Positions 5,020 to 37,432 of a stretch of 64,000 nucleotides of DNA are shown here, piece by piece; the first letter of the stretch is position 1; every line of letters begins with the position of its first letter. The position numbers and the translations under genes were made by a program. Source of the DNA: Paludibacteraceae bacterium (GTDB taxonomy: Bacteria; Bacteroidota; Bacteroidia; Bacteroidales; Paludibacteraceae); contig JAFZGC010000067.1 in the NCBI GenBank assembly GCA_017555595.1, forward strand, positions 514 to 64,513. The letters run 5' to 3'. The notes beneath the pieces are model-generated. The model saw only the letters and a program-made list of their open reading frames with translations. It was not told the origin of the DNA and did not search any database.

Positions 5020-7596
5020 ATGAGAAAAATTTTCTTATTTTTGTTCGCAGCTGTGCTGTCAATCGGTACAGCTATGGCGGAATTGGTGACCATCACCGAA
5101 AATCAGTGTACTCTCGAGTACGAAGTGGATGGTAGGGCGTTGTATATTACTGGCGACTACCTCGGAGATCCATTTTCATTAACTCTTTTAAGTGAGAATG
5201 ACATTGACTTGACCGCAGAATCATTTGTGTGCGATGTGCAATCATTGAATATCGCAAATTACAGTAAGTATGCTGATAGAGGTACCGCTACAGTAAAAGT
5301 TTACCCTTATGGCATTGGTATATCAGCAACAGGACTGTATGACTTCGTTGGTGATGACCCAAACACATACGACTTGGTCGATCTTTGGGCAGAACCTAAA
5401 GAAGCTGCCGGAGGTGATGATGTTTCGTATGATGCAGAGTTTACAGTAGATATGACAGGTTTGGAAGCTACAATGGAGCTTACATTTGCGGCTTCAGGAC
5501 AATCAGATGATACGCAATTGGGTGGCCCATTGGGAACTGTAGTAACATATCTAGAATGCGATTGGGAAGCGGTAGATGGCGCTTTACCTGTTCTTCCTGG
5601 CAATAGTTCCTTAACTTTGGCAGATCATGGTCTTCTTGGTGAAGTGTTGGCTGGCTCTGTTGTTCCTGTGCTGGATGCAAGCGAGACCGCATTTGTATCT
5701 GCAACTGCTGTTGTATATGTTTATTTTGAAGATATGGGTACTTTCAAATTCACATTAAACATGACAGCAGGTAGTTCAGAAGAACCAGGAGAACCAGGAG
5801 AATCTGCTACAGTTTCTGTACAAGTATGGAATGCTACATTGAGTCAACAATATGGCACATTGATGCTAGATGGTAGCATGAATGGTGTAGCTGTGCATGC
5901 AGAAGTTCCAGAATTTGAATTTGTGCCTGATACTTGGGACAGGTTTGACTATAGCAATGTCATGGTTGAGGTAGGCACATGGGGAGAGTCAGACTATGTA
6001 GGTATGGCTTACGGCGATGCTACTGTGGAGTTGGATCAAAATACAGTAACAATAACTGGTACAATGACGACAAGTGGTGGAACTACATTTGTTGCGTATA
6101 TCCAAGGCTCATTGCAACCTGCTGACCCAATGGCCTCTACAACCCTTACCATGGAAGGTTTGACAAAATCGGAAGTTAATCGTGGTATGGGTCGTGGTTT
6201 CACACAATTGGCAGATGCTAGCGATAATTCAATTGAGATTTACAACCTCCAAGAGGATGGAACATTTGCATACGGCGATTACCTAAAAGTTACTGCAAAC
6301 ATTAATGAAGTAAGTTTAGAGGGTTCTGGATCTTGGCAAGAAGTGGACGGAACAGAAACCCTAATTGCTACTCTTTATGACGATTATTATACTGAGGTTT
6401 ACTACGTAACAGCCACTGTTGCAGGCGCAAAAACCATAACCCTCACTTGTAGCGATGCGGTTTATTATAAGAACGAATACAACGAGACTATCTTTACAGG
6501 AGTAACCGCAAATGATGAGAGCGTAAAACTTACAATCGCGAATCTTAAAACGGGCATCAACACCGCAGATGCAGGACGTCCTATTTTATGCGAATATGGT
6601 CCTTGGTACGATCCAACATACCTACAAGCAGAGTCTGTTACAGTAACAGCCATTGATCTTACAACTTACACCGTAACAGGTGAATTTACTGACGGTATTA
6701 ACACCTATAATGTTACTATTACGGCAACCCCAATGCCAATTATAGATATGACTATTACTGACGCTGTTTACGAGAAAGATGAATATGGAAATATCTACAT
6801 CAAAGCCGAGTGGAATGGAACCACAGTAAACTTCGAATTACCTGTATGGGCTGGTAACGAAGGCGAGTATTCAGATGTATATTTCACAACAGGAAATGGC
6901 ATGGGCGATGATGACTTTAGTGCTACTGCAGGATACGCTTTATTAGAAACAACAACCACCGAATTTACTCTCACCGGTACATTTACGCACGATTGGGAAC
7001 AAAAGATGTACAACGCAACTATCTCTGGAACTTTCCCTGTTTTCACCCGCACAGTAACTTCTGGTAACTACGGTACAATCTGCTTGCCATTTGGTTCAAC
7101 CGAGTTCTCTGGTGCTACTTTCTATGAAGTAGTAGGTAAAGAGACTGGTAAGGTATACTTGGGCAGCGTAAGCACATTGGTTGCTGGTGTTCCTTATATC
7201 TTCCAAGCTTCTGCAAACGAGTTGACTGTTTACAGCAACGGAACAACTACTGACGAAGCTGGAAGCAAGAATGGTTTGATTGGTAATTTCACCGATGAAA
7301 CAGTTGTTCCTGCAGGACACTATATTCTCTACAGCAACGCATTCATCCCAGCTGATGGTACAACAAACAAAGTGAACGCTAACCGTGCATACCTTAATAT
7401 GAATGCAATAACTGGTGGCAAACCACAACAAGTTCCAGGTCGTCGCTACATCGGTATGGATGTTCAAGACGAGAACGAGGCTACTGGTGTTGACAATATC
7501 ACAACAGGTGCTGAGGTAGTTAAGACTATCGAGAATGGTCAACTCATCATCATCCGTGAAAATGTTAAGTACAACGCACAAGGACAAAAATTATAA
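5020..7596 (+). CDS. Secreted repeat protein of unknown function (858 aa) with a conserved C-terminal domain and tail ...ENGQLIIIRENVKYNAQGQKL
   Basis: Signal peptide MRKIFLFLFAAVLSIGTAMA. T/G/V-rich beta-type modules. The C-terminal ~180 aa align with the C-terminus of the 2658-aa protein. Confidence 0.85.
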   Translation: MRKIFLFLFAAVLSIGTAMAELVTITENQCTLEYEVDGRALYITGDYLGDPFSLTLLSENDIDLTAESFVCDVQSLNIANYSKYADRGTATVKVYPYGIGISATGLYDFVGDDPNTYDLVDLWAEPKEAAGGDDVSYDAEFTVDMTGLEATMELTFAASGQSDDTQLGGPLGTVVTYLECDWEAVDGALPVLPGNSSLTLADHGLLGEVLAGSVVPVLDASETAFVSATAVVYVYFEDMGTFKFTLNMTAGSSEEPGEPGESATVSVQVWNATLSQQYGTLMLDGSMNGVAVHAEVPEFEFVPDTWDRFDYSNVMVEVGTWGESDYVGMAYGDATVELDQNTVTITGTMTTSGGTTFVAYIQGSLQPADPMASTTLTMEGLTKSEVNRGMGRGFTQLADASDNSIEIYNLQEDGTFAYGDYLKVTANINEVSLEGSGSWQEVDGTETLIATLYDDYYTEVYYVTATVAGAKTITLTCSDAVYYKNEYNETIFTGVTANDESVKLTIANLKTGINTADAGRPILCEYGPWYDPTYLQAESVTVTAIDLTTYTVTGEFTDGINTYNVTITATPMPIIDMTITDAVYEKDEYGNIYIKAEWNGTTVNFELPVWAGNEGEYSDVYFTTGNGMGDDDFSATAGYALLETTTTEFTLTGTFTHDWEQKMYNATISGTFPVFTRTVTSGNYGTICLPFGSTEFSGATFYEVVGKETGKVYLGSVSTLVAGVPYIFQASANELTVYSNGTTTDEAGSKNGLIGNFTDETVVPAGHYILYSNAFIPADGTTNKVNANRAYLNMNAITGGKPQQVPGRRYIGMDVQDENEATGVDNITTGAEVVKTIENGQLIIIRENVKYNAQGQKL

Positions 7597-7603
7597 ATAA
7601 TTT

Positions 7604-7668
7604 AGACCGCCTTACGGCTGAAAGAAGTCAGACCATTACATTGTCAGACCGCCCTACGGGCTGAAAGA
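7604..7668 (+). repeat. Two copies of a 22-23 bp unit agaccgcc(t/c)tacgg(g)ctgaaaga in the spacer before the mini-ORF
   Basis: The copies are at 7604-7625 and 7646-7668. They are followed by three copies of GACAGYGAARCG, starting at 7679, 7704 and 7727. Confidence 0.8.
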
Positions 7669-7760
7669 CCCAAGAATCTGACAGCGAACGCAGTGAGTGT
7701 TCTGACAGTGAAACGATCTGACATCCGACAGCGAAGCGGTCACAAAACAAAGTTTTGATT

Positions 7761-7901
7761 ATGAAAAAGAATTATATCGCGCCTCAAACAGAGGCAATTC
7801 AACTTCTCGGTGAGAATGCAATCATGGCTGGTAGCCCTACTGTAGGAGGTGGTAAATTCATCTCAACAGGTGCTGCACAAAGTGATGTTTACGGAGATTA
7901 A
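7761..7901 (+). CDS. Mini-ORF, 46 aa, paralogous to the mini-ORF at 29181-29315
   Basis: Encodes MKKNYIAPQTEAIQLLGENAIMAGSPTVGGGKFISTGAAQSDVYGD. 17 of the first 26 residues are identical to the second copy. Both share the same position 3' of a giant gene, and a terminator follows. Confidence 0.55.
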   Translation: MKKNYIAPQTEAIQLLGENAIMAGSPTVGGGKFISTGAAQSDVYGD

Positions 7902-7967: not shown

Positions 7968-7994
7968 AAAACCGCCTCCCAGGCGGTTTTCTTG
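7968..7994 (+). terminator. Rho-independent terminator after the mini-ORF
   Basis: aaaaccgcct-ccc-aggcggttttcttg: a GC-rich stem followed by a T-tract. Confidence 0.8.
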
Positions 7995-13795: not shown

Positions 13796-16700
13796 TTATT
13801 CTACAACAACACCCAGCACGTTGTAAGTCTTGCCCTCATGGATAATGATGAGTTGACTGTTTCGGAGGAGTTTATAGGTAGTAGCCGTGGGCGTCTGGAT
13901 CTCACCTACTGATGTTGGTGCTTGGTTATAGACACAACCATAATCATCGAAATCTGGGTGGTCGGTGGTATAGAGGCAGTTATCATCGCGCCAAGCGCAG
14001 AGCATGACGGAAGTTTGTGTTTCGCTACTAGCACTTCTGGCTGGGGCAGCGTGAACATCACTTGTTCGCTTAGCAGCATTGTGCACGATGCCATCCACAG
14101 AGCCGAGACCTGCTAACCACACTTTTTGTGCGTTTTCTACAGAGGAGGTTTCATCAGGGAAGACAACTTCCAGCATCATGCGGCAAGCGCCATTCTCGAG
14201 GGTGTCTTTACCTGTCACCACATGGGTGTAGGTGGTTTCTTGAGGATAGTTGTTGATACCCGCAAAGATCTCTATGGTGTCGCCAGGCTCGGCGGTAAAG
14301 TCATAGAGGACATACTCTACTCCATCACGGAGGAAATACACGCGGTTGTCTTCATCTTCGCCGAAATGCAATGCACCCACAAAAGATTTGGTGATAGCCG
14401 TATCTTTGGTAGATTGGCGAGCGAGTTGGTAGAAGGTTTTACCCTTGGTAACAATGGAGTCGTTCTCTAAGGTGTAACTAAAGGTCTCTGCACGCAGGAT
14501 AGTTGGGGTACCGTCCATCTCTTTGGTTTCTACTTCTAACATATTCCATTGAGTAGGCGTTGGTCTGCCACCAATCTTGCCGTTCTTGGCATTATCTTTT
14601 TTAGGACCGCTATTGTAATCGCATAGGCACTCTGCACCCAAGCGTTCCATCTCGGTGTCGTCCATTTGGTAGAGGAGTTTGTTGTTCTTGCTTACGCAAA
14701 CGAGGTGGGTGCCTGTGTGACATGGTACAACGACTTCTTGAATCAATCCGAAGAAGTTACCTCCACGGCGACCACCATACATACCAATACCCTCTACATA
14801 CTCCATTCCGTTATTGAATGTCCATTTCTTGTATTCCTTTCCGTCAAGGAGTGTGACATTAGAAATATCTGTAACGACAAATGTGTCAGCAGGGTATATT
14901 GTTCCGTCTTCGAAGTCTTTGTTGTAATCTACCACATCTAAGTTATATGGTATCCAATCCATAGCATTGCGCGCATGGTAATAAATATACAACGCTGGCA
15001 GCGAGTCGCCTACTTCCAACGTGAAGTCATACAACACAAGGTCTTTATTAAGTAGTTGGCTATATATCAATATCTTATTATCTTCTTCACGCAGGAGATA
15101 ACCATCGCAAAGGATATAAGGTTTATTATTTTCAAAGAATATTTTGTCAAAAGTCTGTTTGTAGGTATTATTCGCAGAATTATCATCCTCTGTCTCTCCG
15201 CAATACTCATTGCAAACTGTTCGTTGCAAGCCTGACAGCATAGGGAAAAGATCTTCATCAACGGTTCCATCATTATTATAAACGCATCCCATGTTCTTAT
15301 AATCCGAGAAGTTAGTGGTATATACACATTCATCATCGCGATATGCGCAAAGCATAATTATCGCGCCATCACCACCAACTCCTGGATTAGATGGATTAAA
15401 GATAATGCCATACGTAGAACCTAATCCTTCTATCCATGTTACAGGATGTTTTTCTTCAAAATATTCCCCAGCACCATTATCTATACGGATAACAACATCA
15501 GCTTGTATTTGTAACCTACCATCATCTAATGTCTCTTTGTCTGTGATAACATGGGTGTATGTCTTATGATAGTTATAAAATTCTAAACCAGCAAAGAGTT
15601 CTAACGTATCTCCTAGTTCTGCACCAAAATCGTAAAGCAGATATTCAGTTTCGTCAAATGCGTAGTAAAAATACACTTGCTTGTCTTCTGTAAAGCGTAA
15701 TTCACCAATGAGATTAGTTGATTCCACATCAGGTTTACTGGATGAGCACATAAGAGGGATATACTCTTGACCATCTCTATTGACAGTATTATTACTCAAC
15801 CAAAATATGCTCGTACGCGCCGCTACCAACGGGTCTTGCGGACCTTGATATCCGTGCGAAAGGATATTCCATTGGTTGCACCAAGTGTCTGACCATTTCT
15901 TTTCTACATCACATAGGCACTCTGCGCCAAGGCGTTCCATTTCGGCGTCGTCCATTTGGTAGAGGAGTTTGCCGTTACGGCTGGCGCATACTAATTGTTC
16001 ACCCAAATAACATGCAGGAAGAGGATATGGATTAGCAATATTTATATAATCTCCTCCAAAACTACCAATTCCTTCTACATAATAGTTGCCATTTTCCCAA
16101 TCATTGCCAAATAGCCATCTTTTATATTCTTTTCCGTCTAACAATGTGATTGTTGATACTTCAGTGACATGTTTCGATCCTAATGGCTCTTTCTTAATTA
16201 TAAACTCATCTGTTGCTACATCATAATCTTCGTATGCTATGTAATCCACTACCGCTGCGTATTCAAGTTCGGGGAAAGAATAGATGTCTATTCCGAGATT
16301 TTGCAAAGTGTCGCCAACTTCTAAAGTATAATCATATAAGACCAAGTCTTTTTCGTATGGAAAACTATAAATTAGAACTTTCGAATCTTCTTCACGCAAA
16401 AACACACCGCCACATTTAAGATATTGTTTGCCATTAATTTCCGTTATCTCTTTGGGTGAAAATAAATAACTCTTGTTTTCTTCGCATCCATCAAACCATT
16501 CATCGCAACTTGTTCGCTGCAAGCCCCAAAGCGTTGGAAAGAGGTCTTCGGGACTTTGTTCTGCATCATCACCACAACCGTACTCTTCGTATAAAGGACC
16601 TGTATATTTTAATTCATCGCCTTTGTAGGCGCAGAGCAAATACTCTGAACCACCACCATCCATTTCTACGTAATGATTGATGCCATTAAGAAATCCATTT

Positions 16701-17260
16701 ATATCACCGACTCCTTCTATCCATTGGGTTTGACGATAGAACTCTCTAAAATCATCAGGGTGATTATGTACTTCCAGAGTGATAGTCGCAGGGCATCCTA
16801 CACATGCGTATTGTTCAATGCCTGTCACGGTGCATTTGTATGTTTTGATTTCAGATGTATAGTTGTTGATACCAGCAAATACTTCTAACTCATCACCTTC
16901 TTGGACATTGAAATCATACAATAAGTATTCGGCGTTATCGTAATAGATATACACTTTTCTATCATCAGTAAAGCGAACTGCTGCCACATATCGAGGTGCA
17001 TCAAGAGCATCGTTGATAGCTTTGCTAACAACAGCAGTATAGGTGTGCTCACCTATGACGGTATCTTTCGCCAATTGATAACGATATGTTTCTTCATGTG
17101 GTGGATATACACTGCCATTTTCCACAAATACATTCCATGTATCGCACCACTGGGATTGGTAGGAAGTATTATCATACGCGAAGGTTGACACACCTGCCAT
17201 GAGGGCGAGGGTAAGAGCAAGGAGTTTGCTGTGGAAAGAGGTAATCGTTTTCATACGCAT
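13796..17260 (-). CDS. Secreted Cys-rich repeat protein (about 1154 aa from MRMKTITSF), module order A-B-A-B-A, tail ...NSQLIIIHEGKTYNVLGVVVE
   Basis: Signal peptide MRMKTITSFHSKLLALTLALMAGVSTFA. The start was trimmed because the -7 box at 17304-17311 lies inside the ORF-track extension. Strong internal repeats are present. Confidence 0.85.
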   Translation of the reverse strand: MRMKTITSFHSKLLALTLALMAGVSTFAYDNTSYQSQWCDTWNVFVENGSVYPPHEETYRYQLAKDTVIGEHTYTAVVSKAINDALDAPRYVAAVRFTDDRKVYIYYDNAEYLLYDFNVQEGDELEVFAGINNYTSEIKTYKCTVTGIEQYACVGCPATITLEVHNHPDDFREFYRQTQWIEGVGDINGFLNGINHYVEMDGGGSEYLLCAYKGDELKYTGPLYEEYGCGDDAEQSPEDLFPTLWGLQRTSCDEWFDGCEENKSYLFSPKEITEINGKQYLKCGGVFLREEDSKVLIYSFPYEKDLVLYDYTLEVGDTLQNLGIDIYSFPELEYAAVVDYIAYEDYDVATDEFIIKKEPLGSKHVTEVSTITLLDGKEYKRWLFGNDWENGNYYVEGIGSFGGDYINIANPYPLPACYLGEQLVCASRNGKLLYQMDDAEMERLGAECLCDVEKKWSDTWCNQWNILSHGYQGPQDPLVAARTSIFWLSNNTVNRDGQEYIPLMCSSSKPDVESTNLIGELRFTEDKQVYFYYAFDETEYLLYDFGAELGDTLELFAGLEFYNYHKTYTHVITDKETLDDGRLQIQADVVIRIDNGAGEYFEEKHPVTWIEGLGSTYGIIFNPSNPGVGGDGAIIMLCAYRDDECVYTTNFSDYKNMGCVYNNDGTVDEDLFPMLSGLQRTVCNEYCGETEDDNSANNTYKQTFDKIFFENNKPYILCDGYLLREEDNKILIYSQLLNKDLVLYDFTLEVGDSLPALYIYYHARNAMDWIPYNLDVVDYNKDFEDGTIYPADTFVVTDISNVTLLDGKEYKKWTFNNGMEYVEGIGMYGGRRGGNFFGLIQEVVVPCHTGTHLVCVSKNNKLLYQMDDTEMERLGAECLCDYNSGPKKDNAKNGKIGGRPTPTQWNMLEVETKEMDGTPTILRAETFSYTLENDSIVTKGKTFYQLARQSTKDTAITKSFVGALHFGEDEDNRVYFLRDGVEYVLYDFTAEPGDTIEIFAGINNYPQETTYTHVVTGKDTLENGACRMMLEVVFPDETSSVENAQKVWLAGLGSVDGIVHNAAKRTSDVHAAPARSASSETQTSVMLCAWRDDNCLYTTDHPDFDDYGCVYNQAPTSVGEIQTPTATTYKLLRNSQLIIIHEGKTYNVLGVVVE
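14615..17170 (-). repeat. Intragenic tandem duplication, period about 1.29 kb (about 429 aa)
   Basis: Near-identical DNA around 14620-14680 and 15905-15970 encodes LLYQMDDAEMERLGAECLCD in both copies. The flanking protein modules align. Confidence 0.8.
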
Positions 17261-17303
17261 TATTTTAGTTGTTATACATTTTTGCTGATGCTGAATTTTG
17301 CTG

Positions 17304-17311
17304 CAAAGGTA
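17304..17311 (-). promoter_or_regulatory. -7 box TACCTTTG upstream of the 1154-aa gene
   Basis: caaaggta on the plus strand, 44 nt upstream of the ATG at 17260. Confidence 0.65.
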
Positions 17312-17458
17312 CTGCTTTTTCTGAAACGCTGCAATAGCGTGGGGCATTTGTACTGATAGCCAAAATGTATAGTGTTTATATTCTGTGGGTTATATTAAAA
17401 ATGTACAGATTGCTATTTGCTATAAGGGACAAAATAATCGGCTAATGCGAAATGATTC

Positions 17459-28278: not shown

Positions 28279-28363
28279 GGAGAGATGGCAGAGTGGTCGA
28301 TTGCGGCGGTCTTGAAAACCGTTGAGCTGAGAGGCTCCGGGGGTTCGAATCCCTCTCTCTCCG
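28279..28363 (+). tRNA. tRNA-Ser (anticodon TGA)
   Basis: GGAGAGATGGCAGAGTGGTCGATTGCGGCGGTCTTGAAAACCGTTG...GGGGGTTCGAATCCCTCTCTCTCCG. Confidence 0.9.
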
Positions 28364-28377
28364 CAAACTAAAATGAA

Positions 28378-28785: not shown

Positions 28786-28983
28786 CTAAAAATGTTTTTC
28801 CATAAACATTCGCCTTTTCTTATCTCCGATTGCAAAATATGGTCTCATTGCCTTGAAATCTCCCAAGTGGCGTATAGCAGTAGATTTGCCAATTTGGCGT
28901 GCACCACGCAGAAGCAATGGCTTGCGATTCGCTCTGTCTTTCCACTCTAATAACGCTTGGTCAATAGCTCTTTCTATATACAT
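28786..28983 (-). pseudogene. Truncated AAA-ATPase gene (N-terminal Walker A part only)
   Basis: MYIERAIDQALLEWKDRANRKPLLLRGARQIGKSTAIRHLG... stops after 65 aa. It has its own -7 box at 29008-29015. Confidence 0.5.
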
Positions 28984-29007
28984 AATGACGATTTTTATTT
29001 CACGCCG

Positions 29008-29015
29008 CAAAGGTA
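29008..29015 (-). promoter_or_regulatory. -7 box TACCTTTG upstream of the ATPase remnant
   Basis: caaaggta on the plus strand, 25 nt upstream of the ATG at 28983. Confidence 0.5.
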
Positions 29016-29089: not shown

Positions 29090-29135
29090 CACTACAAACA
29101 CCAACAACCACCCTTGCCATACGCAAAGGTGGTTG
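29090..29135 (-). terminator. Terminator after the second mini-ORF
   Basis: A 13-bp stem, caaccacccttgc (29105-29117) paired with gcaaaggtggttg (29123-29135, one G-U pair). On the minus strand it is followed by ttggtgtttgt. Confidence 0.65.
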
Positions 29136-29180: not shown

Positions 29181-29315
29181 TTAGTCTGGTTGACCAGGAG
29201 TTCCCGTTCCATCATATAAGTTAAGCATCGTCGTTGGAGGACTACCAGCCATAATAGCGTTAGTACTTAAGAGCAGAACTGCTTTTGTCTCGGGTGTTTG
29301 ATATATCTTTTTCAT
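29181..29315 (-). CDS. Mini-ORF, 44 aa, paralogous to the mini-ORF at 7761-7901
   Basis: Encodes MKKIYQTPETKAVLLLSTNAIMAGSPPTTMLNLYDGTGTPGQPD. In-frame upstream ATGs at 29321 and 29324 are also possible starts. It begins 15-24 nt after the stop of the 2658-aa gene. Confidence 0.55.
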   Translation of the reverse strand: MKKIYQTPETKAVLLLSTNAIMAGSPPTTMLNLYDGTGTPGQPD

Positions 29316-29339
29316 ATTCATCATTGTTTATAATGTTTA

Positions 29340-32300
29340 TTATTCCATTCGTTGTCCTTGCATGTTATACATTTCTTCTCCACGGATAATAATTAGCTGT
29401 CCGTCTTTTAGAACCTTTCTTACTTGGTTGGCAGGTTGCGTTTCTACCATTGGGATAGAAGTAGCGGCATTATCTTGGAATACTACACGAGCTCGAATTG
29501 GCAGTGGTGAAGCAGACTTGAAGTAAGCACGAAGACCAAGAATCGTACGAGGATATGTTCCTGCGCAATACAACGCATTATTTGACAGGAAGTATTCATC
29601 AGACTGATTCAATGTACCACCTGCATCTAATACAGGTACCATTGTTACAGTACCAGAGGTAACAGGTTTCAAAGACAAATCAATCTCTACACCTTCCATA
29701 GTGAAACCATCTTCTGCATCGTATCCACTGGCAGCGGTTTTAAGGATGTATGGCGTACCTGCTGTGATAGTGCTGACTGGTCTGAATTGCAAGTGAACTT
29801 CTTCTGCATTATATTCAACTACATTGTCCAACGCATATACAATAGCATTGCCGAATACATTGCGAATTTGTGTTTCATTCATATCAAATGGCAATGTCAG
29901 TGTCAAATACTTGTTCGCTTCGAAGTTGCGTTTAACCGTTGCTGTTACTACCTCACCGTCATAATTTTCAAGAGCAGTAGTGTTGTCTGCATTTTCGTCA
30001 ACGGTCACAGAAGACTCCAACGCAACATCAAATGTATAAATAGTTGCATCTGCTACAAGTGTGATTAGAAGATTTGTACCATCTACTTCCACAGCAGTTG
30101 CCGCAGCTGTTGCTGCTTGTGGCGTGGTGATATTGCGCGTCTCTAATTCTTGTGCTGTTGCAAGACCATTAGTGATATCAATAATTTTCACACCTGCTAC
30201 ATTTTCGCCGTCTGCATATGGAGCCACCATCAAGTGTTTGCCTAAAACAGTGAGGTAAGTAGCACCATTGAATTTCTTGCCGAGAGTATTATCAGCAATA
30301 TTAGCATTCACAATAGGGTCTTGCCCGTAAGTTTGTGGATTAGTAAACTCTGATGGCTCCATTAACTCTGCATCAATAATCCAGTTTTCTGTAGCTAGTG
30401 GAGATGCATTAAGTTGGAACTTCACGCCATGAGTAGTCTCGTTGTAAACAGCTGCATCAACTCCTGCACTAGCTCCTTTAAACTTCTTACCTATATAATA
30501 ATAATAAGGAAGTGATACCGCACCATCAGAAGTATCAATGTACTTTCCATCTATTATAGAGAAGTGCGACATACGAACACCACGGTGCGTGTTATGAAGC
30601 CCCGTAACAAGAATGTTGGCATTAGTAGAAGTTCCTGTAACGGCCATTGTGTAACCTTGATCTGAGGTAGCAGAGTTGCTTGAAGCACTAGACTGGAACC
30701 AAATAGAAGGATTTGCAGTAAGATTATCCCAAATATAGAATGTTGCTAAGTTAGAACCGCCAAATGTTGTTTGAACATAGTTACAAGCCACCAACTTGCC
30801 GTCCTCTGTCGCAGCAATATCAGAGATTGAGAGATAACCTGCCGCAGCAGCCTCTACACCCACTTGTGATATTTCTGCTTCTAACTCACCAGCCACTACT
30901 TTATAGAGGTGTGGAGTGCCATTTGCTTCGTGTGTGAGAACTACGGTGCTTTCGCCAATTTGAACAGCGCGTTTCACAACACCTTCCATTGCAAGTGGCT
31001 TCAATTCGAAGTTGGCAGTAACAGTTATATCACCTTCTACAACGAGCGCCAATGGATTGTCTGCAACAGTAGTTGTTCCATAAGTCCAGTTTACAAAACG
31101 ATAGTTCTCATTAGCAGTTGCTGCCAGTGTTGCCGTTTCGCCAGTCTTGTATTCACCACCACCTGCTACAGTACCCATCGCATTGTCATTAGCCTCTACA
31201 GTTACTGTATATCTTGCTTCTTTCATGATTATTTGTGACTCAGGAGCAGGAACGGTGCAAGTGTTGTTGTTGGTAGGAAGAACATACTTGTAGAAGCGCT
31301 CTGTGCCAGAGTGTACTACATATAAGTCACCCGCATAGTCGAAGGCAAGACCATCAAGTTCATTCCTTCCAAGATTTGGAGTTTGGCATATTTTAGAAAT
31401 TGATGGTACACCATCAGCAGCATATGTCACTTGGAATACAGAAGCACATGCTTGTGAATGTACAGCCAATATGTCTCGTTGCTTATCATATGCAATTGCT
31501 CCACGATAGTTTGCTCCAGCGAACCAATCAGAATATTCTTTATCCGCTTCGACTTTGAAATCGATTTTATTTTCAGCCACATTCACATGGAATAATGTAC
31601 CAGCTGCCGTTCCCCAACGATTCTGTGCAATCCAAAGACCACCATGACCATCAGAAGCCATAGCAATTTCTTGATCATAGAACAAGTTTCCGCCATTTGA
31701 TGTCAACTCTTTATAAGTACCATCAGTCTTTATCTGATATATGTTTCCATTTGGAGCACCAGATGTAGAAACATTAGCTACTACATACAAATTGCCTTCA
31801 TCGTCAAAGCATAGTGCATTTACTTTTTGAATTTCTGAAATATGCTTTGTCAGATTGATAGCTTCACCAGCTAAATTCTCTCTGCTTACTGCATATGCTC
31901 CACCATTCGTGGTTGTATTATTGCAGAATGCAATATCTCCATTCGCTGGATTAATTGTAATACGCTTAAAGACTTGTCGGTTTGCACCTATTGTATATGG
32001 CAATTGGGGTTTGATACCTGTGTTAGCAGGGGCATTCAACTCCTCTAATGCTTGATTATAGATAAATATACCTGCCTTTTGGGTATCAGAGCGATCCGCT
32101 ATGCCATCTGATGCACCATTATACGACTGTTGAATATAAATCTTTCCAAATTCATCGGAGTTAGGATCATTATCCACTACTACGCCCATCATGTTGTAGA
32201 AGTCGTAGATGTTGCGTGCTGGGTTAGTGATTTCTGCCATTTTAGCAATTGCTTCACCTGCGAGTTCTACTTCCCAGTAAATATCTTTGGTAGCAGCAGC

Positions 32301-35300
32301 AAATACGGTCTTTGCAATCGTAATTGTTTTTTCTTCAGCAGTAGTAGCAGTTGCGGTATGTGTACCAAAGTTCTGTATATTACCATCCTCATCCTTAAAG
32401 ATTAAGGTAGCAGTACCTGCGCTGGTTGTCTTGAAGGTGAATATGTAATTAGCTGGATCTGTATCTGCGTCTAACCTTAAATCATACGCCCACGCGCGTG
32501 GAACGGCAACTTTGAAGTTAGCTGTCAGATTTACATCCCCTGTTAATTCATCTATAGTACGAGTTTCCTCAGTTACGCCATCGCTCCAATCTACGAATAC
32601 ATAACCACCCTTAGCTGTTGCGGTCAGCGTCACCTCTGTACCCTCATAGTAAGAACCATCACCTGTAACAGTTCCCATAATGTTATCATAAGTCACATTG
32701 ATGGTGTATTTCGTTTTCTCTACGAAGTTAGCAACATAAGTAGCAGACTCTGTTACGACAAATGTATATGGATTCTCAGTAGATACCTCTGCATCATCTT
32801 TAGTCCAATTAACAAACTTGTAGTTTGTTGCAGCAACAGCGGTGATAGTAGCATTTTGATTTTCTTCGAATGTTCCGCCACCGTTAGCGATACCCCACTC
32901 ATTATTATTAGATGCTACACTTACGGTGTACACTGGAGTAAAGCGAACAGCCTCTAATGCAGGAGCTGCTACGGTGCAGATGTTGTCTGCGGTAGGCAAG
33001 GTGAACTTTTGGAATTTCTCTTTATGTGAGTTTACTACATACAAGTCACCTGCATAGTCAAATGCAAGACCGTCAATATTATTGCCTAAATCATCACTTG
33101 CGATAGTATATAATGGAGTCAATTCGATAGTAGGCTCGTAGCTTACAGTATAAAGCTCTACCTTACCATTTCTACCTTGTGCTAATATCTTACGCTCTAC
33201 ATCGTATGCCAACGCACCACGATTAGAACCTCCTTCAAAACCATGAGGTGTCTCCTGATTTACCCACCAATCAAATTCGCCAGTGCTTGTTACATGCACC
33301 AATTGATAATAATATGGAGCACCATCCATTTGACCACGGTTTTGGCTTATCCAAAGACCACCACGACCATCGGATGCCATTGTGATATATGCATTAATAA
33401 ATTTAGCTGAAATTTCAGTAATTCGAGTTGCTTCTCCATTTATTACCTTGTAAACAGCACCTGTGCTGCCAGCGAAATCCATTACATACAGTGTTCCTTC
33501 TGCGTCAAAGCAATGTGCTACCGAACGGGTCATATCTGCAACACCTGTGAGCAAGTTGGTAACATCACCAGTCATATCATCACGATTGATAGCAAACACT
33601 GCTGGTTTACCTGCAACTGCGTGACTAAATACCAAGTTACCTGTCTTAGGATGGATATTCAATCGTTGGAATGCAGAAGAAGACGAACCGATCTCTGTAT
33701 ATCCAGCTGGCATTGTAGGTTTAAGACCAACATTTGAAGGATTATTCAATTCCTCCAACGCTTGATTATAGATGAACACACCAGATTTTTGGTCATTTGA
33801 ACGAGTAGTTAGACCATTGTTACTTGTACTACTACTTGCATAAGAACGCTCATACGACTGTTGAATATAAATTTTACCAAAGTCTTTTGAGTCGGTATTA
33901 TTATCCACAACCACACCCATCATATTATAGAAGTCGTAGATGCCGCGGGTTTGGTCGGTTACTTCTGCAATAGCAGGGATAGGCTCACCGTCCATTGTAA
34001 TAGACCAAAAAGCATCCACACCTGCTGCAAAAGCGTTTTTAGCTATAGTGAACTTATTCTCTCCAACAAAAGCTGCTATTGTTTGTGATGCAGGTTGCGC
34101 CAACGCATTACCGTCCTTATCTTTGAAAGTGATGGTTGCTTGTCCATCGGCAGTCGCTTTGAAGGTGAATGTGTAGTTGTCGCCATCCTCACCTAATTTC
34201 ATATCGTATGCCCATGCGCGAGGGTGCGCCTCTGCAAACTCAGCGATATACTCTGCTGCACCAGTTACAGTAATAGTGCGTGGGTTGTCGGTGTTACCAT
34301 CATTCCATTGAGTGAAGTAGTAAGCGCTCTTAGCAACAGCTTTGAGCGTAACTTCTTCGCCTTCGTAATAGTCGCCACGACCTGTTACATAACCTTTGCT
34401 TGTATGGTCTGCGTGTGCATTGATGTTGTATTGCGCCAATGCCTCGAAGTTGGCTACGAGTTCTACATTCTCTGTTACAGGGAATGAATAGGTTGCCTCA
34501 GTCGAAACCTCTACACCATCTTTTGTCCAATTCACAAATTTGTAACCAGTGTTAGGAGTTGCTGTCAAAGTAGCAGTTGCTCCTTCTTGGTAAGCGCCTG
34601 CGCCTGTAACAGTTCCGTTTGTAGCACTTGCAGAAACGGTGTAGTTTTCTTTGAGAGATACTCTCCAAACAGCCGCTGCTACAGCTGGACAGAATTGATA
34701 GATATAAGCCGTCTTCTCATCTACAACTTGCACATTGAGCCAGTTAGCAGCACTATTTTTGCTTGTCTTATCTTTTGCAAAGAGTATTTCTTCAGAAACA
34801 AGTTTTCCGTCTGTAGCATTTATCAACTGCCATTCGCTGGAGTAGGCAGTTGTACCAGCGACATATGCCCAGAACTCTTTTCCTCCCAATTCAAATGTAC
34901 AGCCACCGATTGTAGAATTTTTCTTAGCTAAATAAGGATCTTCGGTAGATGTTAATGTGGTAATATTGTACTCAAATGCACCTGCATTTTTAGATTGTGT
35001 ATGGATATTACCATAAATATCCAATACCACATTGCTTTGCGAGGAAGCAGCATTAGTAATATTTGCTATAGTATCGTCTGTTACATCTTCAGCGGTTGCA
35101 GCACCATTTTTGATAAATAATCTTGATATCGTTTTTTGATCCTTACAGAAGAAATACACATACCCCCCCTCTGCACTATAGATATTTCCAGAAGCTGTTA
35201 GGAAATCGCAACGACCTGGTGCATCTAGTGTGAAACTTACAGGAGTTCCTGTAGTGCTACCATTTGGATAAATAATGATAGCATTGGGATTTGCAGCATA

Positions 35301-37316
35301 GAAAGTAGCATTAAACACAATCAAGTTACCTGCCTCATCAACAGCAATTTGCTGACCAATACCAGATGATGTCACATATTCTGTACCAGTATCATCTGCA
35401 TCAGAGTAGGTTAATATTTTCTTGTTACCAGCATCTTGCATATAAATTGTTCCATCCCAACCTACTGCTTGATAACCATTACTTGTAGATGTAGGAACAT
35501 GCGTATTCTCCCAAACTTTCTCAATGGTAAATGTAGGATCAGCTGCGTACTCTTTTACAAAGTAAGCAGAAACTGCTTTATTGTTATCCATTGTGAGAGT
35601 GATAGAAGGTGTAGTTGCTTTGTTGCTCCAAGCAAGCAGTTTGTAGCCAGGCTTTGGAGTAGCAGTCAGTGCCACCTCTGTACCATATTCATAAGAACCT
35701 GTAGCGACATCTATTGTACCTTTGTTCTCGTCATTAACAAACACGGTCAAGGTGTGTTTCTGCTTCTCAAAGTTCGCAGTAATAGTCATATCGCTATTTA
35801 CCGTAATGGTCAATGGGTTCTCATTAGAAGTAACATCACCTGTCCAATTGACAAAATCATAGTGTTCGTTAGCTACAGCAGTAAGTTCTGCGGAAGCGCC
35901 TGCTTCATAAGTACCCAAATTACCTGTAATTGAACCCTCGCCAACAACTTGTGTTGTCACCGTGTATAATGTTACATCCGCTTCTTTTTTCGTAACAATA
36001 TACGCCTTTTTAGCTGGTACTTCACAGGTATTGTTGTCTGTAGGTATTGTATATTGTATAAGACGCATAACATCACTATCTGTGCCACTATAAGACGCTC
36101 CGGTACAAGCAAGAAGGTTGCCAGCATAATCAAACGATAATGTACTAACATATCTATCAGAAATGGTATGCGTCTGTTTTAAAGCAAGCTCAGGTGTCTT
36201 ACCATCCCATACTACATCATATTCTAATATGCTTGTTGAACCACAAATAAATAACTTACTATTATCACTATTTACAGCGAGACCTGCACCTTCACACTTT
36301 CCCTTGTCTATTGAATATTGCAGAACTCCTGTATTATCAATGAACGCTAATTCTTTACGACCTGTTGTTCCATCATTTTGACTCACCCAAACACCTTTTT
36401 CTGTAGCAGCAAAGGCATTGTTGGTAGATGGATTTATACTAGCATAGGCGGTGCATATCCAGGTAGGTACATCGCTCCAAGTTTTTAATATACTACCATC
36501 TAGTTGACCAATATGATAGCAAACTGCTGATGAAGCATTTGTTCCATCTTCCATCATAGTATAAAGAACAGTATTTGCACCTGATCCATAAATACCCACA
36601 CCTGAAGTAGAACTACCTATTTCTTTGCCTGCAGCATTGGTAAAGAGACCATTAGAATCACGAGTACCATTATAGAACTGTGTACAAGTGGTTAGGTCTG
36701 ATGGATTTACCACCCAAATTCCAGATCTTCTAGCATCTGTATAATCTGCTAAAAACAAGGTACCGTCTGCAGCTACTGCGGGACGTGCGTATCCACTTTC
36801 ATCTCGACCGAGTGCATAGACCGTATTATTAATAAGCTGTAAATCAGGAGTGTAGACATATAAGCCACTCTTGCTATTAGAAGTTCGTCTATCTGTAACA
36901 TATACTCGACCAAAGTAATCAGATTCTGGGCTATTATCGATAGTAGCATGGCCGCGACCATATTTTTTGGCACCAGTGTACACTGCTTCGAATGCAGTAA
37001 CTTCTGCAGCTGATAACTCTACTGACCAATTGAGTTGCTGACCATCATTGCCTGGCAAACTATACTCAGCAATTTCAACTTCGTTTTTGCCCAATACAGG
37101 ATTTGTCAATGCTATCTCTCCTACCAACTCACTGGAGGTTGCATCATAAAATATGATCTTACCAGATGTAGGAGTTTCATTCGCTGTGAAAGAAAAGGTA
37201 TAAACCTTATCCACCAGCGCAGACGAAAGATCATAAGCGTATATTCGCTTAGGTTGTGCTGCAAACGATAACAAACTTATCGTCATCGCAACTAAAAATA
37301 GAGTAAGTTTTTTCAT
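29340..37316 (-). CDS. Giant secreted modular protein (2658 aa): beta-propeller-like modules alternating with seven InlB B-repeat/Listeria-Bacteroides-type repeats, a conserved C-terminal domain and tail ...KDGQLIIIRGEEMYNMQGQRME
   Basis: Signal peptide MKKLTLFLVAMTISLLSFA. Seven copies of the ...G.V.G.G.Y..G....L.A....GY.F..W... repeat are present. LAFDYAGDLYVV occurs twice and the variant LSFDYAGNLL once. Confidence 0.9.
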   Translation of the reverse strand: MKKLTLFLVAMTISLLSFAAQPKRIYAYDLSSALVDKVYTFSFTANETPTSGKIIFYDATSSELVGEIALTNPVLGKNEVEIAEYSLPGNDGQQLNWSVELSAAEVTAFEAVYTGAKKYGRGHATIDNSPESDYFGRVYVTDRRTSNSKSGLYVYTPDLQLINNTVYALGRDESGYARPAVAADGTLFLADYTDARRSGIWVVNPSDLTTCTQFYNGTRDSNGLFTNAAGKEIGSSTSGVGIYGSGANTVLYTMMEDGTNASSAVCYHIGQLDGSILKTWSDVPTWICTAYASINPSTNNAFAATEKGVWVSQNDGTTGRKELAFIDNTGVLQYSIDKGKCEGAGLAVNSDNSKLFICGSTSILEYDVVWDGKTPELALKQTHTISDRYVSTLSFDYAGNLLACTGASYSGTDSDVMRLIQYTIPTDNNTCEVPAKKAYIVTKKEADVTLYTVTTQVVGEGSITGNLGTYEAGASAELTAVANEHYDFVNWTGDVTSNENPLTITVNSDMTITANFEKQKHTLTVFVNDENKGTIDVATGSYEYGTEVALTATPKPGYKLLAWSNKATTPSITLTMDNNKAVSAYFVKEYAADPTFTIEKVWENTHVPTSTSNGYQAVGWDGTIYMQDAGNKKILTYSDADDTGTEYVTSSGIGQQIAVDEAGNLIVFNATFYAANPNAIIIYPNGSTTGTPVSFTLDAPGRCDFLTASGNIYSAEGGYVYFFCKDQKTISRLFIKNGAATAEDVTDDTIANITNAASSQSNVVLDIYGNIHTQSKNAGAFEYNITTLTSTEDPYLAKKNSTIGGCTFELGGKEFWAYVAGTTAYSSEWQLINATDGKLVSEEILFAKDKTSKNSAANWLNVQVVDEKTAYIYQFCPAVAAAVWRVSLKENYTVSASATNGTVTGAGAYQEGATATLTATPNTGYKFVNWTKDGVEVSTEATYSFPVTENVELVANFEALAQYNINAHADHTSKGYVTGRGDYYEGEEVTLKAVAKSAYYFTQWNDGNTDNPRTITVTGAAEYIAEFAEAHPRAWAYDMKLGEDGDNYTFTFKATADGQATITFKDKDGNALAQPASQTIAAFVGENKFTIAKNAFAAGVDAFWSITMDGEPIPAIAEVTDQTRGIYDFYNMMGVVVDNNTDSKDFGKIYIQQSYERSYASSSTSNNGLTTRSNDQKSGVFIYNQALEELNNPSNVGLKPTMPAGYTEIGSSSSAFQRLNIHPKTGNLVFSHAVAGKPAVFAINRDDMTGDVTNLLTGVADMTRSVAHCFDAEGTLYVMDFAGSTGAVYKVINGEATRITEISAKFINAYITMASDGRGGLWISQNRGQMDGAPYYYQLVHVTSTGEFDWWVNQETPHGFEGGSNRGALAYDVERKILAQGRNGKVELYTVSYEPTIELTPLYTIASDDLGNNIDGLAFDYAGDLYVVNSHKEKFQKFTLPTADNICTVAAPALEAVRFTPVYTVSVASNNNEWGIANGGGTFEENQNATITAVAATNYKFVNWTKDDAEVSTENPYTFVVTESATYVANFVEKTKYTINVTYDNIMGTVTGDGSYYEGTEVTLTATAKGGYVFVDWSDGVTEETRTIDELTGDVNLTANFKVAVPRAWAYDLRLDADTDPANYIFTFKTTSAGTATLIFKDEDGNIQNFGTHTATATTAEEKTITIAKTVFAAATKDIYWEVELAGEAIAKMAEITNPARNIYDFYNMMGVVVDNDPNSDEFGKIYIQQSYNGASDGIADRSDTQKAGIFIYNQALEELNAPANTGIKPQLPYTIGANRQVFKRITINPANGDIAFCNNTTTNGGAYAVSRENLAGEAINLTKHISEIQKVNALCFDDEGNLYVVANVSTSGAPNGNIYQIKTDGTYKELTSNGGNLFYDQEIAMASDGHGGLWIAQNRWGTAAGTLFHVNVAENKIDFKVEADKEYSDWFAGANYRGAIAYDKQRDILAVHSQACASVFQVTYAADGVPSISKICQTPNLGRNELDGLAFDYAGDLYVVHSGTERFYKYVLPTNNNTCTVPAPESQIIMKEARYTVTVEANDNAMGTVAGGGEYKTGETATLAATANENYRFVNWTYGTTTVADNPLALVVEGDITVTANFELKPLAMEGVVKRAVQIGESTVVLTHEANGTPHLYKVVAGELEAEISQVGVEAAAAGYLSISDIAATEDGKLVACNYVQTTFGGSNLATFYIWDNLTANPSIWFQSSASSNSATSDQGYTMAVTGTSTNANILVTGLHNTHRGVRMSHFSIIDGKYIDTSDGAVSLPYYYYIGKKFKGASAGVDAAVYNETTHGVKFQLNASPLATENWIIDAELMEPSEFTNPQTYGQDPIVNANIADNTLGKKFNGATYLTVLGKHLMVAPYADGENVAGVKIIDITNGLATAQELETRNITTPQAATAAATAVEVDGTNLLITLVADATIYTFDVALESSVTVDENADNTTALENYDGEVVTATVKRNFEANKYLTLTLPFDMNETQIRNVFGNAIVYALDNVVEYNAEEVHLQFRPVSTITAGTPYILKTAASGYDAEDGFTMEGVEIDLSLKPVTSGTVTMVPVLDAGGTLNQSDEYFLSNNALYCAGTYPRTILGLRAYFKSASPLPIRARVVFQDNAATSIPMVETQPANQVRKVLKDGQLIIIRGEEMYNMQGQRME
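31005..34226 (-). repeat. Intragenic tandem duplication of a ~570-aa module (period about 1720 nt), recognisable at DNA level
   Basis: HPRAWAYDMKL starts near 34226 and VPRAWAYDLRL near 32506. DNA at about 32130-32240 and 33860-33970 is clearly homologous (ttgaatataaat...cccatcat...tagaagtcgtagat). Confidence 0.85.
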
Positions 37317-37424: not shown

Positions 37425-37432
37425 CAAAGATA
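37425..37432 (-). promoter_or_regulatory. -7 box TATCTTTG upstream of the 2658-aa gene
   Basis: caaagata on the plus strand, about 110 nt upstream of the ATG at 37316. Confidence 0.55.

Follow-up and report, generated by a model that had tools for sequence, protein, structure and literature searches.

The window analysed here, a 64,000-nucleotide stretch of Paludibacteraceae DNA, carries two pairs formed by a large gene and a mini-ORF that follows it in the same orientation. The first pair is located on the plus strand (the 858-aa gene and mini-ORF copy 1) and the second one on the minus strand (a giant gene and mini-ORF copy 2); their features are listed in Table 1. The giant gene ends in ...CAAGGACAACGAATGGAA TAA, with the stop codon at 29342-29340, after which the minus strand reads TAAACATTATAAACA and then ATG ATG AAT ATG AAA AAG. 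The ORF thus opened, running from 29324 to 29181, is translated as MMNMKKIYQTPETKAVLLLSTNAIMAGSPPTTMLNLYDGTGTPGQPD and terminated by the TAA at 29183-29181, and it comprises 44 to 47 codons depending on which of the in-frame ATGs is used as the start. Across the peptide family, conservation does not extend to the ATGs at 29324 and 29321. Since nearly all homologues start at MKK, and two of the loci (L006 and L009) lack both upstream ATGs, the third ATG (29315) was taken as the conserved start, which gives a spacer of 24 nt. The stop codon of the giant gene, the three in-frame ATGs, the TAA of the mini-ORF and the 13-bp hairpin at 29105-29135 that were listed in the preliminary description of this locus were all confirmed in the sequence.

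Table 1. Position and main traits of the features of the two gene/mini-ORF pairs and of the related tail-only gene in the window.
Feature	Position	Strand	Traits
858-aa gene	5020..7596	plus	Also bears domain X and the GQLIIIR tail
Mini-ORF copy 1	7761..7901	plus	46 aa, YGD-type tail; 164 nt after the 858-aa gene
Copy 1 terminator hairpin	7968-7990		
1183-aa gene	13796..17347	minus	Tail-only: without domain X, no downstream mini-ORF
Intrinsic-terminator-like hairpin	29105..29135	minus	13-bp stem, 5-nt loop; ~45 nt after the mini-ORF stop
Mini-ORF copy 2	29181..29315	minus	From the conserved start; 44 aa + stop; conserved head MKKIYQTPETKAVLLLSTNAIMAGS, class-specific tail PPTTMLNLYDGTGTPGQPD
Spacer	29316..29339	minus	24 nt, A/T-rich; between the giant-gene stop and the conserved ATG
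Giant gene	29340..37316	minus	2658 aa; signal-peptide-like N-terminus MKKLTLFLVAMTISLLSFAA
Linker + tail	29343..29480	minus	Disordered linker PIRARVVFQDNAATSIPMVETQPANQ, then 27-aa three-strand C-terminal tail VRKVLKDGQLIIIRGEEMYNMQGQRME
Domain X	29481..30008	minus	~175-aa beta-rich domain of the giant protein

The 24-nt spacer of copy 2 is too short to hold a promoter, and it contains three in-frame stops. A fusion of the peptide to the giant protein by read-through or frameshifting was ruled out by these stops and by the spacers of other loci, whose lengths are not multiples of three. In addition, a search for fusions between the peptide and the large upstream protein (hereafter, the cargo) found none, the cargo always ending in ...QGQxx.

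When the copy 2 peptide was compared with the window by tblastn, copy 1 was its sole relative. Of 44 residues, 21 are the same in both peptides; they are concentrated in the first 26 positions and belong almost entirely to MKKxYxxPxTxAxxLLxxNAIMAGSP. This likeness far exceeds chance. The copy 1 peptide is identical to a protein from a Paludibacteraceae MAG. From the two copies it had been proposed that conservation applies to the peptide and to the place where it lies, and not to the spacer; the position and the ORF are indeed kept, but conservation of the peptide between the copies is confined to its N-terminal ~25 residues.

The spacer of copy 1 (7597-7760, plus strand) presents repeated CAGACC / GTCTGA-type inverted repeats and small hairpins, with counterparts in L010 (5837-6000) and L022 (5825-6000). 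For these three loci only, RNAalifold predicted 43 pairs, including 4 that show compensatory double changes, and the 3' end of a CAAAAC-AAA-GTTTTG hairpin lies 4 nt before the ATG. On the basis of these three sequences, the copy 1 spacer may be a structured RNA that gates the translation of the mini-ORF. Within the ORF itself, codons 7-12 of copy 1 (GCG CCT CAA ACA GAG GCA; 7781-7795, plus strand) contain a 5-bp hairpin, GCCTC-AAACA-GAGGC, which is absent from copy 2. In the major clade (APQTEA-type loci) the synonymous sites of the stem are invariant except for a GCC in L037, and both synonymous sites of the loop vary (CAA/CAG and ACA/ACT/ACG), a pattern that points to an extra constraint at the RNA level near the 5' end of the ORF.

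The peptide family and its coding constraint

A profile built from the two window copies gathered 114 homologous peptide clusters of 39-52 aa. They have in common the first 25 residues (MKKxYxxPxTEAIxLLxxNAIMAGS), followed by Gly-rich tails in which the endings YGD, GGGMR/GGGMG, YTPQ, GSPR, NGPGx and PGQPE/D recur. An exhaustive HMM search among 1.84 billion proteins yielded 117 representatives at E<=1e-3, including longer divergent relatives of 50-90 aa whose tails are acidic and contain Trp, and a search seeded with divergent members retrieved 319 more distant relatives. The relatives from Prevotella occupy the same position, are acidic and reach up to 94 aa. Where members of the family have been named at all, they are annotated as 'hypothetical protein'. 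The two window peptides did not match any Pfam, NCBIfam, PHROG or PADLOC entry, no PDB match was found for the peptide, and no Rfam family covers the ORF. Likewise, the comparison of 56 distant relatives with Pfam and NCBIfam gave nothing meaningful, the sole recurrent match being lasso_cyano (E = 0.11, in 3 of the 56), and no description of the family was found in a full-text search of the literature. The family is large and uncharacterised, and it is present in Paludibacteraceae and Prevotellaceae. It resembles those of the microbiome smORF catalogues (GMSC, PMC11364881) in being a conserved family of ORFs of <100 aa, mainly metagenomic and known only as 'hypothetical protein', and it differs from them in that a specific genomic partner (domain X) and a two-part architecture are defined. 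It must be noted that the gene itself had already been called as a hypothetical protein; the definition of the family, the pairing with domain X and the two-part architecture are what is new here.

Along the first 25 codons of 36 DNA loci, column entropy was 0.58, 0.32 and 0.97 at codon positions 1, 2 and 3, respectively. In the copy-2 clade, pN/pS (Nei-Gojobori) was ~0-0.1 in the head and 0.6-1.7 in the tail. Since third codon positions vary the most and the pN/pS of the head is close to zero, selection acts on the amino-acid sequence, and by this comparative evidence the mini-ORF is confirmed as a genuine conserved gene coding for a small protein. The preliminary argument that the ORF is real and not a conserved RNA element is therefore borne out by codon entropy, pN/pS, the varied spacers and the lack of an Rfam family. 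A chance ORF, or an RNA or DNA element that is conserved and merely happens to be open, could be suspected from the short length and the lack of any curated family, but this reading, to which we give a negligible chance, is effectively refuted by codon entropy and pN/pS, the synonymous sites varying while amino acids are conserved over >100 clusters, with frame and stop kept in all loci and no Rfam match.

Genomic context and transcription

For the context scan one genome per species was retained, which gave 35 loci: 31 labelled Paludibacteraceae, 1 Bacteroidales, 2 Prevotella/Prevotellaceae and 1 Clostridia. The last one, on a 1.9-kb contig, is probably mis-binned. The Paludibacteraceae and Bacteroidales loci come mostly from ruminant MAGs (yak, cattle and buffalo), with up to four copies per genome. 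In all of the loci with upstream DNA (33/33), the mini-ORF lies 12-176 nt 3' of a co-oriented ORF of 678 to >1991 aa, which codes for a large protein with a signal peptide and ends in ...IENGQLIIIRDGVKYNVQGQKL or a close variant of it (pattern GQLIIIRxGxKYNxQGQxx). The spacers of these 33 loci belong to several unrelated sequence classes, many of them with hairpins of their own. An intact big gene followed by a disrupted mini-ORF, named beforehand as the case that would speak against the ORF, did not turn up among the related loci.

The hairpin located 3' of copy 2 (29135..29105) has 7 GC pairs in its 13-bp stem and a T/G-rich tail, TTGGTGTTTG, and the 126-nt 3' region to which it belongs has a minimum free energy of -40.3 kcal/mol (z = -4.5 with respect to shuffled sequences). 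By sequence it has the traits of an intrinsic terminator, that is, a GC-rich stem-loop and a U-rich tract at the end of the unit. A strong hairpin was found within ~100 nt 3' of the mini-ORF in 36 of 36 related loci. The consensus of the Bacteroidetes -7 motif is TAnnTTTG. This sequence is absent upstream of both mini-ORF copies (for copy 2, within 385 nt upstream), and a promoter of its own for the mini-ORF was discarded on these grounds. The simplest reading is that the mini-ORF would be the last cistron of the transcription unit of the giant gene, both genes being presumably co-transcribed.

With regard to the neighbourhood, the only neighbours that recur in the 33 loci are AAA-type ATPases and three families of unannotated ORFs (~157, 189 and 380 aa). 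Neither in the annotated neighbourhoods nor in the 33 loci was there a recurrent gene for processing or export close to the pairs. AAA-type ATPase genes recur beside giant-gene/mini-ORF pairs elsewhere (AAA_14/DUF4143 in L001). In the window, a short ORF (MRREIKIVIMYIERAIDQALLEWKDRANRKPLLLRGARQIGKSTAIRHLG...; 28786-29010, minus strand) comes immediately after the terminator; apparently truncated, it is similar to the N-terminal part of the AAA-type ATPases found near other pairs. Beyond this short ORF there is a tRNA-Ser(TGA) at 28279-28364 (plus strand).

The C-terminal module of the upstream protein

The giant protein bears seven Flg_new_2 / InlB B-repeat domains and a C-terminal module. Its gene has a -7 promoter motif, TATCTTTG, at 37425-37432 (minus strand), 116 nt before the ATG. 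The last ~220 aa of the two mini-ORF-linked proteins of the window align with each other and with 243 database proteins, mostly fragments. AF2 modelled this module with a pLDDT of 88, the block means of domain X being mostly 93-98, and the layout obtained was a beta-rich domain X of ~175 aa, a disordered linker and a 27-aa tail of three strands. The conserved motifs of domain X are LPF, AGxPYI, Y and RAY(F). A Foldseek comparison of the module with the PDB gave no match at E<=1e-3 (best E 0.05, probability 0.21), and nothing was found in the PDB by sequence or profile searches. None of the Pfam or NCBIfam families covered the module region in 89 module sequences, PHROG and PADLOC had no match for domain X either, and no description of domain X was found in the literature.

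The 27-aa C-terminal tail is predicted to be, and probably is, a C-terminal sorting signal. The type A CTD of the T9SS (PF18962 / TIGR04183) did not match any of the three window proteins at E<=1, and T9SS CTD models left unmatched six upstream proteins of other loci at E<=0.1 and the 89 modules at E<=1. In the AF2 model the tail is formed by three strands in ~27 aa and not by the 7-strand sandwich of type A. No match was obtained with the models of the type B CTD (PF13585 / TIGR04131) either; the adjacent gene encodes a 44-aa peptide, where type B cargo would have a porP/sprF-like barrel gene, and no barrel gene recurs in the 33 loci. In the cargo tail (...NGQLIIIRDGxKYNxQGQKL; 29343-29426, minus strand) two strand motifs are apparently reversed with respect to the Prevotella cargo tail, ...VYDLQGRRV..KGLYIVNGKKVIIK, and T9SS CTD models recognise neither type of tail. 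To judge from its sequence, the cargo tail could represent a C-terminal sorting signal that is permuted or has so far gone unrecognised.

Association of the mini-ORF with domain X

Co-occurrence was scanned in the six-frame ORFs of the window and of all the loci, using HMMs of both module and peptide. In 40 of 44 cases, a protein with the complete module was followed by a mini-ORF, and the remaining 4 all show a mini-ORF on inspection: those of L012 and L044 had been lost to the distance filter, and L041/L043 bear a divergent ORF of 52 aa (MKKKYINP...). Conversely, the mini-ORF followed none of the 13 tail-only proteins, which lack domain X. Both figures include contig duplicates, the non-redundant cases being ~35 and 9, respectively. 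By these counts, what the mini-ORF is associated with is domain X specifically and not gene size. The link to the giant gene that had been proposed earlier is thereby kept in part: the place after a big gene stands, while the feature that is tracked is a specific C-terminal domain instead of the size of the gene.

A natural negative control is present within the window. The 1183-aa protein (13796-17347) has a signal peptide and three internal repeats of ~380 aa, and it ends in ...NSQLIIIHEGKTYNVLGVVVE, a tail of the same kind as that of the two mini-ORF-linked proteins.

The same arrangement was found in Prevotella-type contigs, where the mini-ORF comes after GH3/CBM6/pectinesterase, Big_2, Flg_new and cohesin/dockerin proteins. 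The pairing holds there despite a different cargo tail, with up to three pairs in 16 kb. In the Prevotella-type metagenome contig L041 (1-14714) three enzyme and mini-ORF pairs are consecutive: a 2021-aa GH3/CBM6/pectinesterase with a 60-aa ORF, a 667-aa CBM6 protein with a 58-aa ORF and a 1349-aa pectinesterase with a 52-aa ORF. Therefore, the module adorns polysaccharide-degrading enzymes as well as adhesin-like repeat proteins.

Two-part architecture of the peptide

The 25-residue head of the peptide, which hardly differs among paralogues and is subject to strong purifying selection, is followed by a tail of 15-25 residues, Gly-rich and mildly acidic, which differs between paralogue classes and is conserved within each class across species; F-I-x-T-G...G-x-Y-G-D and GGGMR are examples of these class-conserved motifs. 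The net charge of the tail ranges from -1 in the Paludibacteraceae type to a mean of -5.7 in the distant/Prevotella type. When the peptide was modelled alone by AF2 the pLDDT was low (62), with a helix at residues 10-23 and a disordered tail, and its hydropathy shows two hydrophobic patches around a G-x-N turn, which fits a hairpin as well as a helix.

In 33 pairs, the distance between peptide tails was correlated with that between domains X (Mantel r = 0.52, p<=5e-4) and with that between linkers (0.35). There was no correlation with the last 27 aa of the cargo, even though they lie physically closer (0.09), or with the head of the same peptide (0.00). In turn, the distance between peptide heads was correlated (r = 0.65) with that between these 27-aa ends of the cargo. 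Since the tail tracks domain X and the head tracks the last 27 aa of the cargo, the order along the DNA is A-B-B-A. The covariation of tail and domain X fits recognition but is suggestive only, because co-inherited flanks and gene conversion of the middle block give the same result.

Between copy 1 and L010, identity is ~95% over a stretch that comprises the final ~60 nt of the big gene, the 164-nt spacer and 26 codons of the mini-ORF; exactly after the AGS-P codons the similarity ends. In these mosaic loci (7500-7840 in the window and 5740-6080 in L010), the bodies of the upstream proteins and the tails of the peptides belong to different classes. The mosaic looks like the outcome of gene conversion or cassette exchange with its breakpoint at the head/tail junction.

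Putative function of the mini-protein

The reading that we prefer, with a confidence slightly short of even, is that the mini-protein is a putative partner or adaptor dedicated to the C-terminal module of the cargo. It is based on the fact that the mini-ORF follows only large surface proteins and enzymes that bear a signal peptide and domain X. The class-specific tail would recognise the cognate domain X, and the invariant head would contact something common, which could be the conserved core/tail of the cargo or a shared factor for export, attachment or regulation. As is the case of dedicated chaperones and adaptors, the mini-protein is small and acidic, has no signal peptide and adjoins one exported protein in all loci. 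Against this reading, AF2 models domain X confidently without the peptide, so that the domain needs no donated strand. The main difficulty of the partner reading is the place where both proteins would meet, which is problematic because only the cargo has a signal peptide. Besides, the pN/pS of the tail in the copy-2 clade (0.6-1.7) could reflect weak constraint instead of specific recognition.

Private secretion chaperones, such as those of class I of the T3SS, VirE1 for VirE2 and the Lap partners of the LXG toxins of the T7SS, are folded proteins of 65-150 aa that serve one-step or Sec-independent systems. The mini-protein is like them in being a small acidic protein devoid of signal, adjacent to and co-oriented with one exported protein, with class-wise specificity. 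It differs in that the cargo has a Sec-type signal peptide and in that the partner is much smaller and partly disordered, its binding being putative. A further likeness is found in the PorP/SprF proteins, the partners of type B cargo in the T9SS, which are encoded in clusters with their substrates (PMC10202324): in both cases there is a partner gene specific for the cargo, the cargo is a large Bacteroidota surface protein defined by its C-terminal region and many paralogous pairs occur per genome. However, PorP/SprF form outer-membrane beta-barrels with several hundred residues; the mini-protein has 40-50 aa and no signal peptide, and the C-terminus of its cargo does not match any type A, B or C CTD model.

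The chief rival to the partner reading is that the ORF encodes the precursor of an exported peptide formed by a leader and a core, similar to that of a bacteriocin, a pheromone or a RiPP. The head would be the leader for a single processing or export machine encoded elsewhere and would be cut near AGS, and the Gly-rich tail thus released might act on or with the neighbouring surface protein. We regard this as unlikely, but as deserving serious weight. It would account for the abrupt change from a conserved head to a variable tail, with several paralogues per genome sharing the head, for the change of pN/pS from ~0 in the head to the values of the tail, and for the exact end of the similarity between copy 1 and L010 DNA after the AGS-P codons. 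The YxxP motif, which recalls lasso leaders, and the weak match with NF033528 (lasso peptide; E = 0.11, 3 of 56 distant members) are also in its favour. Invariant N-termini, hypervariable C-termini, several copies per genome and a YxxP near the N-terminus are indeed the traits shared with prochlorosins, double-glycine leaders and the YxxP leaders of lasso peptides. On the other hand, no GG-leader or RiPP-precursor model matches the peptides, the head ends in AGS, AVS or ASP and not in GG, and the tails are almost devoid of Cys and have no D/E at core positions 7-9. The annotated neighbourhoods lack any gene for a peptidase-ABC transporter, RRE protein, radical-SAM enzyme or cyclase, and none recurs in the 33 loci. 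Moreover, the Prevotella tails, with 30-70 aa and a mean charge of -5.7, are unlike known cores, and the strict link to domain X is left unexplained; leader-core systems offer nothing comparable to the obligate pairing with a structural domain of the giant protein encoded alongside.

Two known types of leader were considered in particular. GG leaders have a GG/GA/GS cleavage motif and hydrophobic residues at -4, -7, -12 and -15, and they go with a C39-peptidase ABC transporter. A leader of this type (TIGR01847, TIGR04149) was rejected since no NCBIfam match was obtained at E<=1 with the 2 + 56 peptides, the head ends in MAGS and positions -7 and -12 are polar; no C39-peptidase ABC transporter was found in the annotated neighbourhoods or among the recurrent neighbours. 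Lasso precursors have a YxxPxL leader with Thr at -2, a core that starts with G/A/S/C and has D/E at 7-9, and adjacent B and C enzymes. The mini-ORF does have the YxxP, but position -2 is M or A, the window copies have no D/E at core positions 7-9 and there are no B/C genes nearby, so that a lasso precursor was rejected as well. Compared with leader-core systems as a whole, the GG motif, the Thr at -2, the ring-forming D/E, a nearby maturase or transporter and a model match are all missing here.

A more doubtful explanation is that the mini-ORF codes for an independent small cytoplasmic protein, for instance a regulator, which travels among paralogues in a recombination cassette made of the C-terminal module, the mini-ORF and the terminator. 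The block of ~95% identity that extends from the end of the big gene (~60 nt) to the head between loci with different flanks agrees with such a cassette, as do the covariation (r = 0.65) of the head with the 27-aa end of the cargo and the arrangement of the pairs in tandem arrays, often beside AAA_14/DUF4143 ATPase genes. It does not agree with the fact that proteins with the same tail and no domain X never carry the ORF (0/13), nor with a pairing that is kept from Paludibacteraceae to Prevotella despite changes in the tail, the spacer and the C-terminal signal of the cargo.

Only a slight chance is given to the ORF acting in cis, with no role in trans, by means of a ribosome, possibly arrested by the nascent head, that protects the 3' end of the long mRNA or modulates the terminator. 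The tight coupling to the stop of the giant gene (12-24 nt in one clade), the terminator 30-100 nt downstream, a length of 40-48 codons (about one exit-tunnel length) and the near-neutral tail of one clade could be understood in this manner. The arrest motif of SecM is IRAG-P, which IMAGS-P loosely recalls. Nevertheless, there is no downstream gene to regulate but a terminator hairpin in 36/36 loci, AGS is not followed by a conserved Pro (the residue at this position is P, G, S, Y or N), the class-specific motifs of the tail are conserved across species (F-I-x-T-G...Y-G-D, GGGMR) and the Prevotella relatives reach 94 aa. In addition, structured RNA separates the two ORFs in the long-spacer classes, and a link to domain X instead of to gene length would find no explanation. 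Arrest leaders like those of SecM or MifM precede the gene that they regulate and have an invariant arrest motif where the ribosome stalls; a leader of this type was rejected because a terminator and not a gene follows in 36/36 loci and the residue after AGS varies. With nothing downstream and with class-conserved motifs in the tail, a purely cis-acting ORF is unlikely.

Implications

Going back to the partner reading, a bolder version of it, to which we grant only a low probability, is that domain X and the mini-protein constitute an unrecognised two-component device for the sorting or attachment of Bacteroidales surface proteins. In this device an adaptor of 45 aa, encoded in trans, would dock by its invariant head on a shared export or attachment machine, or else would be processed after AGS, its new N-terminus being joined to the cargo, and the class-specific tail would select the cognate cargo through domain X. 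If this were true, it would be a new way to address giant proteins and multi-domain glycoside hydrolases to the surface of rumen and gut bacteria. If the mini-ORF instead encodes an exported leader-core peptide, it would represent a new family of precursors without known maturation machinery.

It must be considered that small proteins are commonly overlooked or annotated just as 'hypothetical', and that this family has unusually strong comparative support and a defined partner. Domain X and the mini-protein mark a conserved two-gene module with which, in rumen Paludibacteraceae and Prevotella, many of the largest surface proteins and secreted enzymes of polysaccharide degradation end. Should the peptide be needed for their export, anchoring or regulation, its 135-nt gene would be a simple genetic handle and the peptide itself a missing component in the display of giant adhesins and fibre-degrading enzymes by Bacteroidales.
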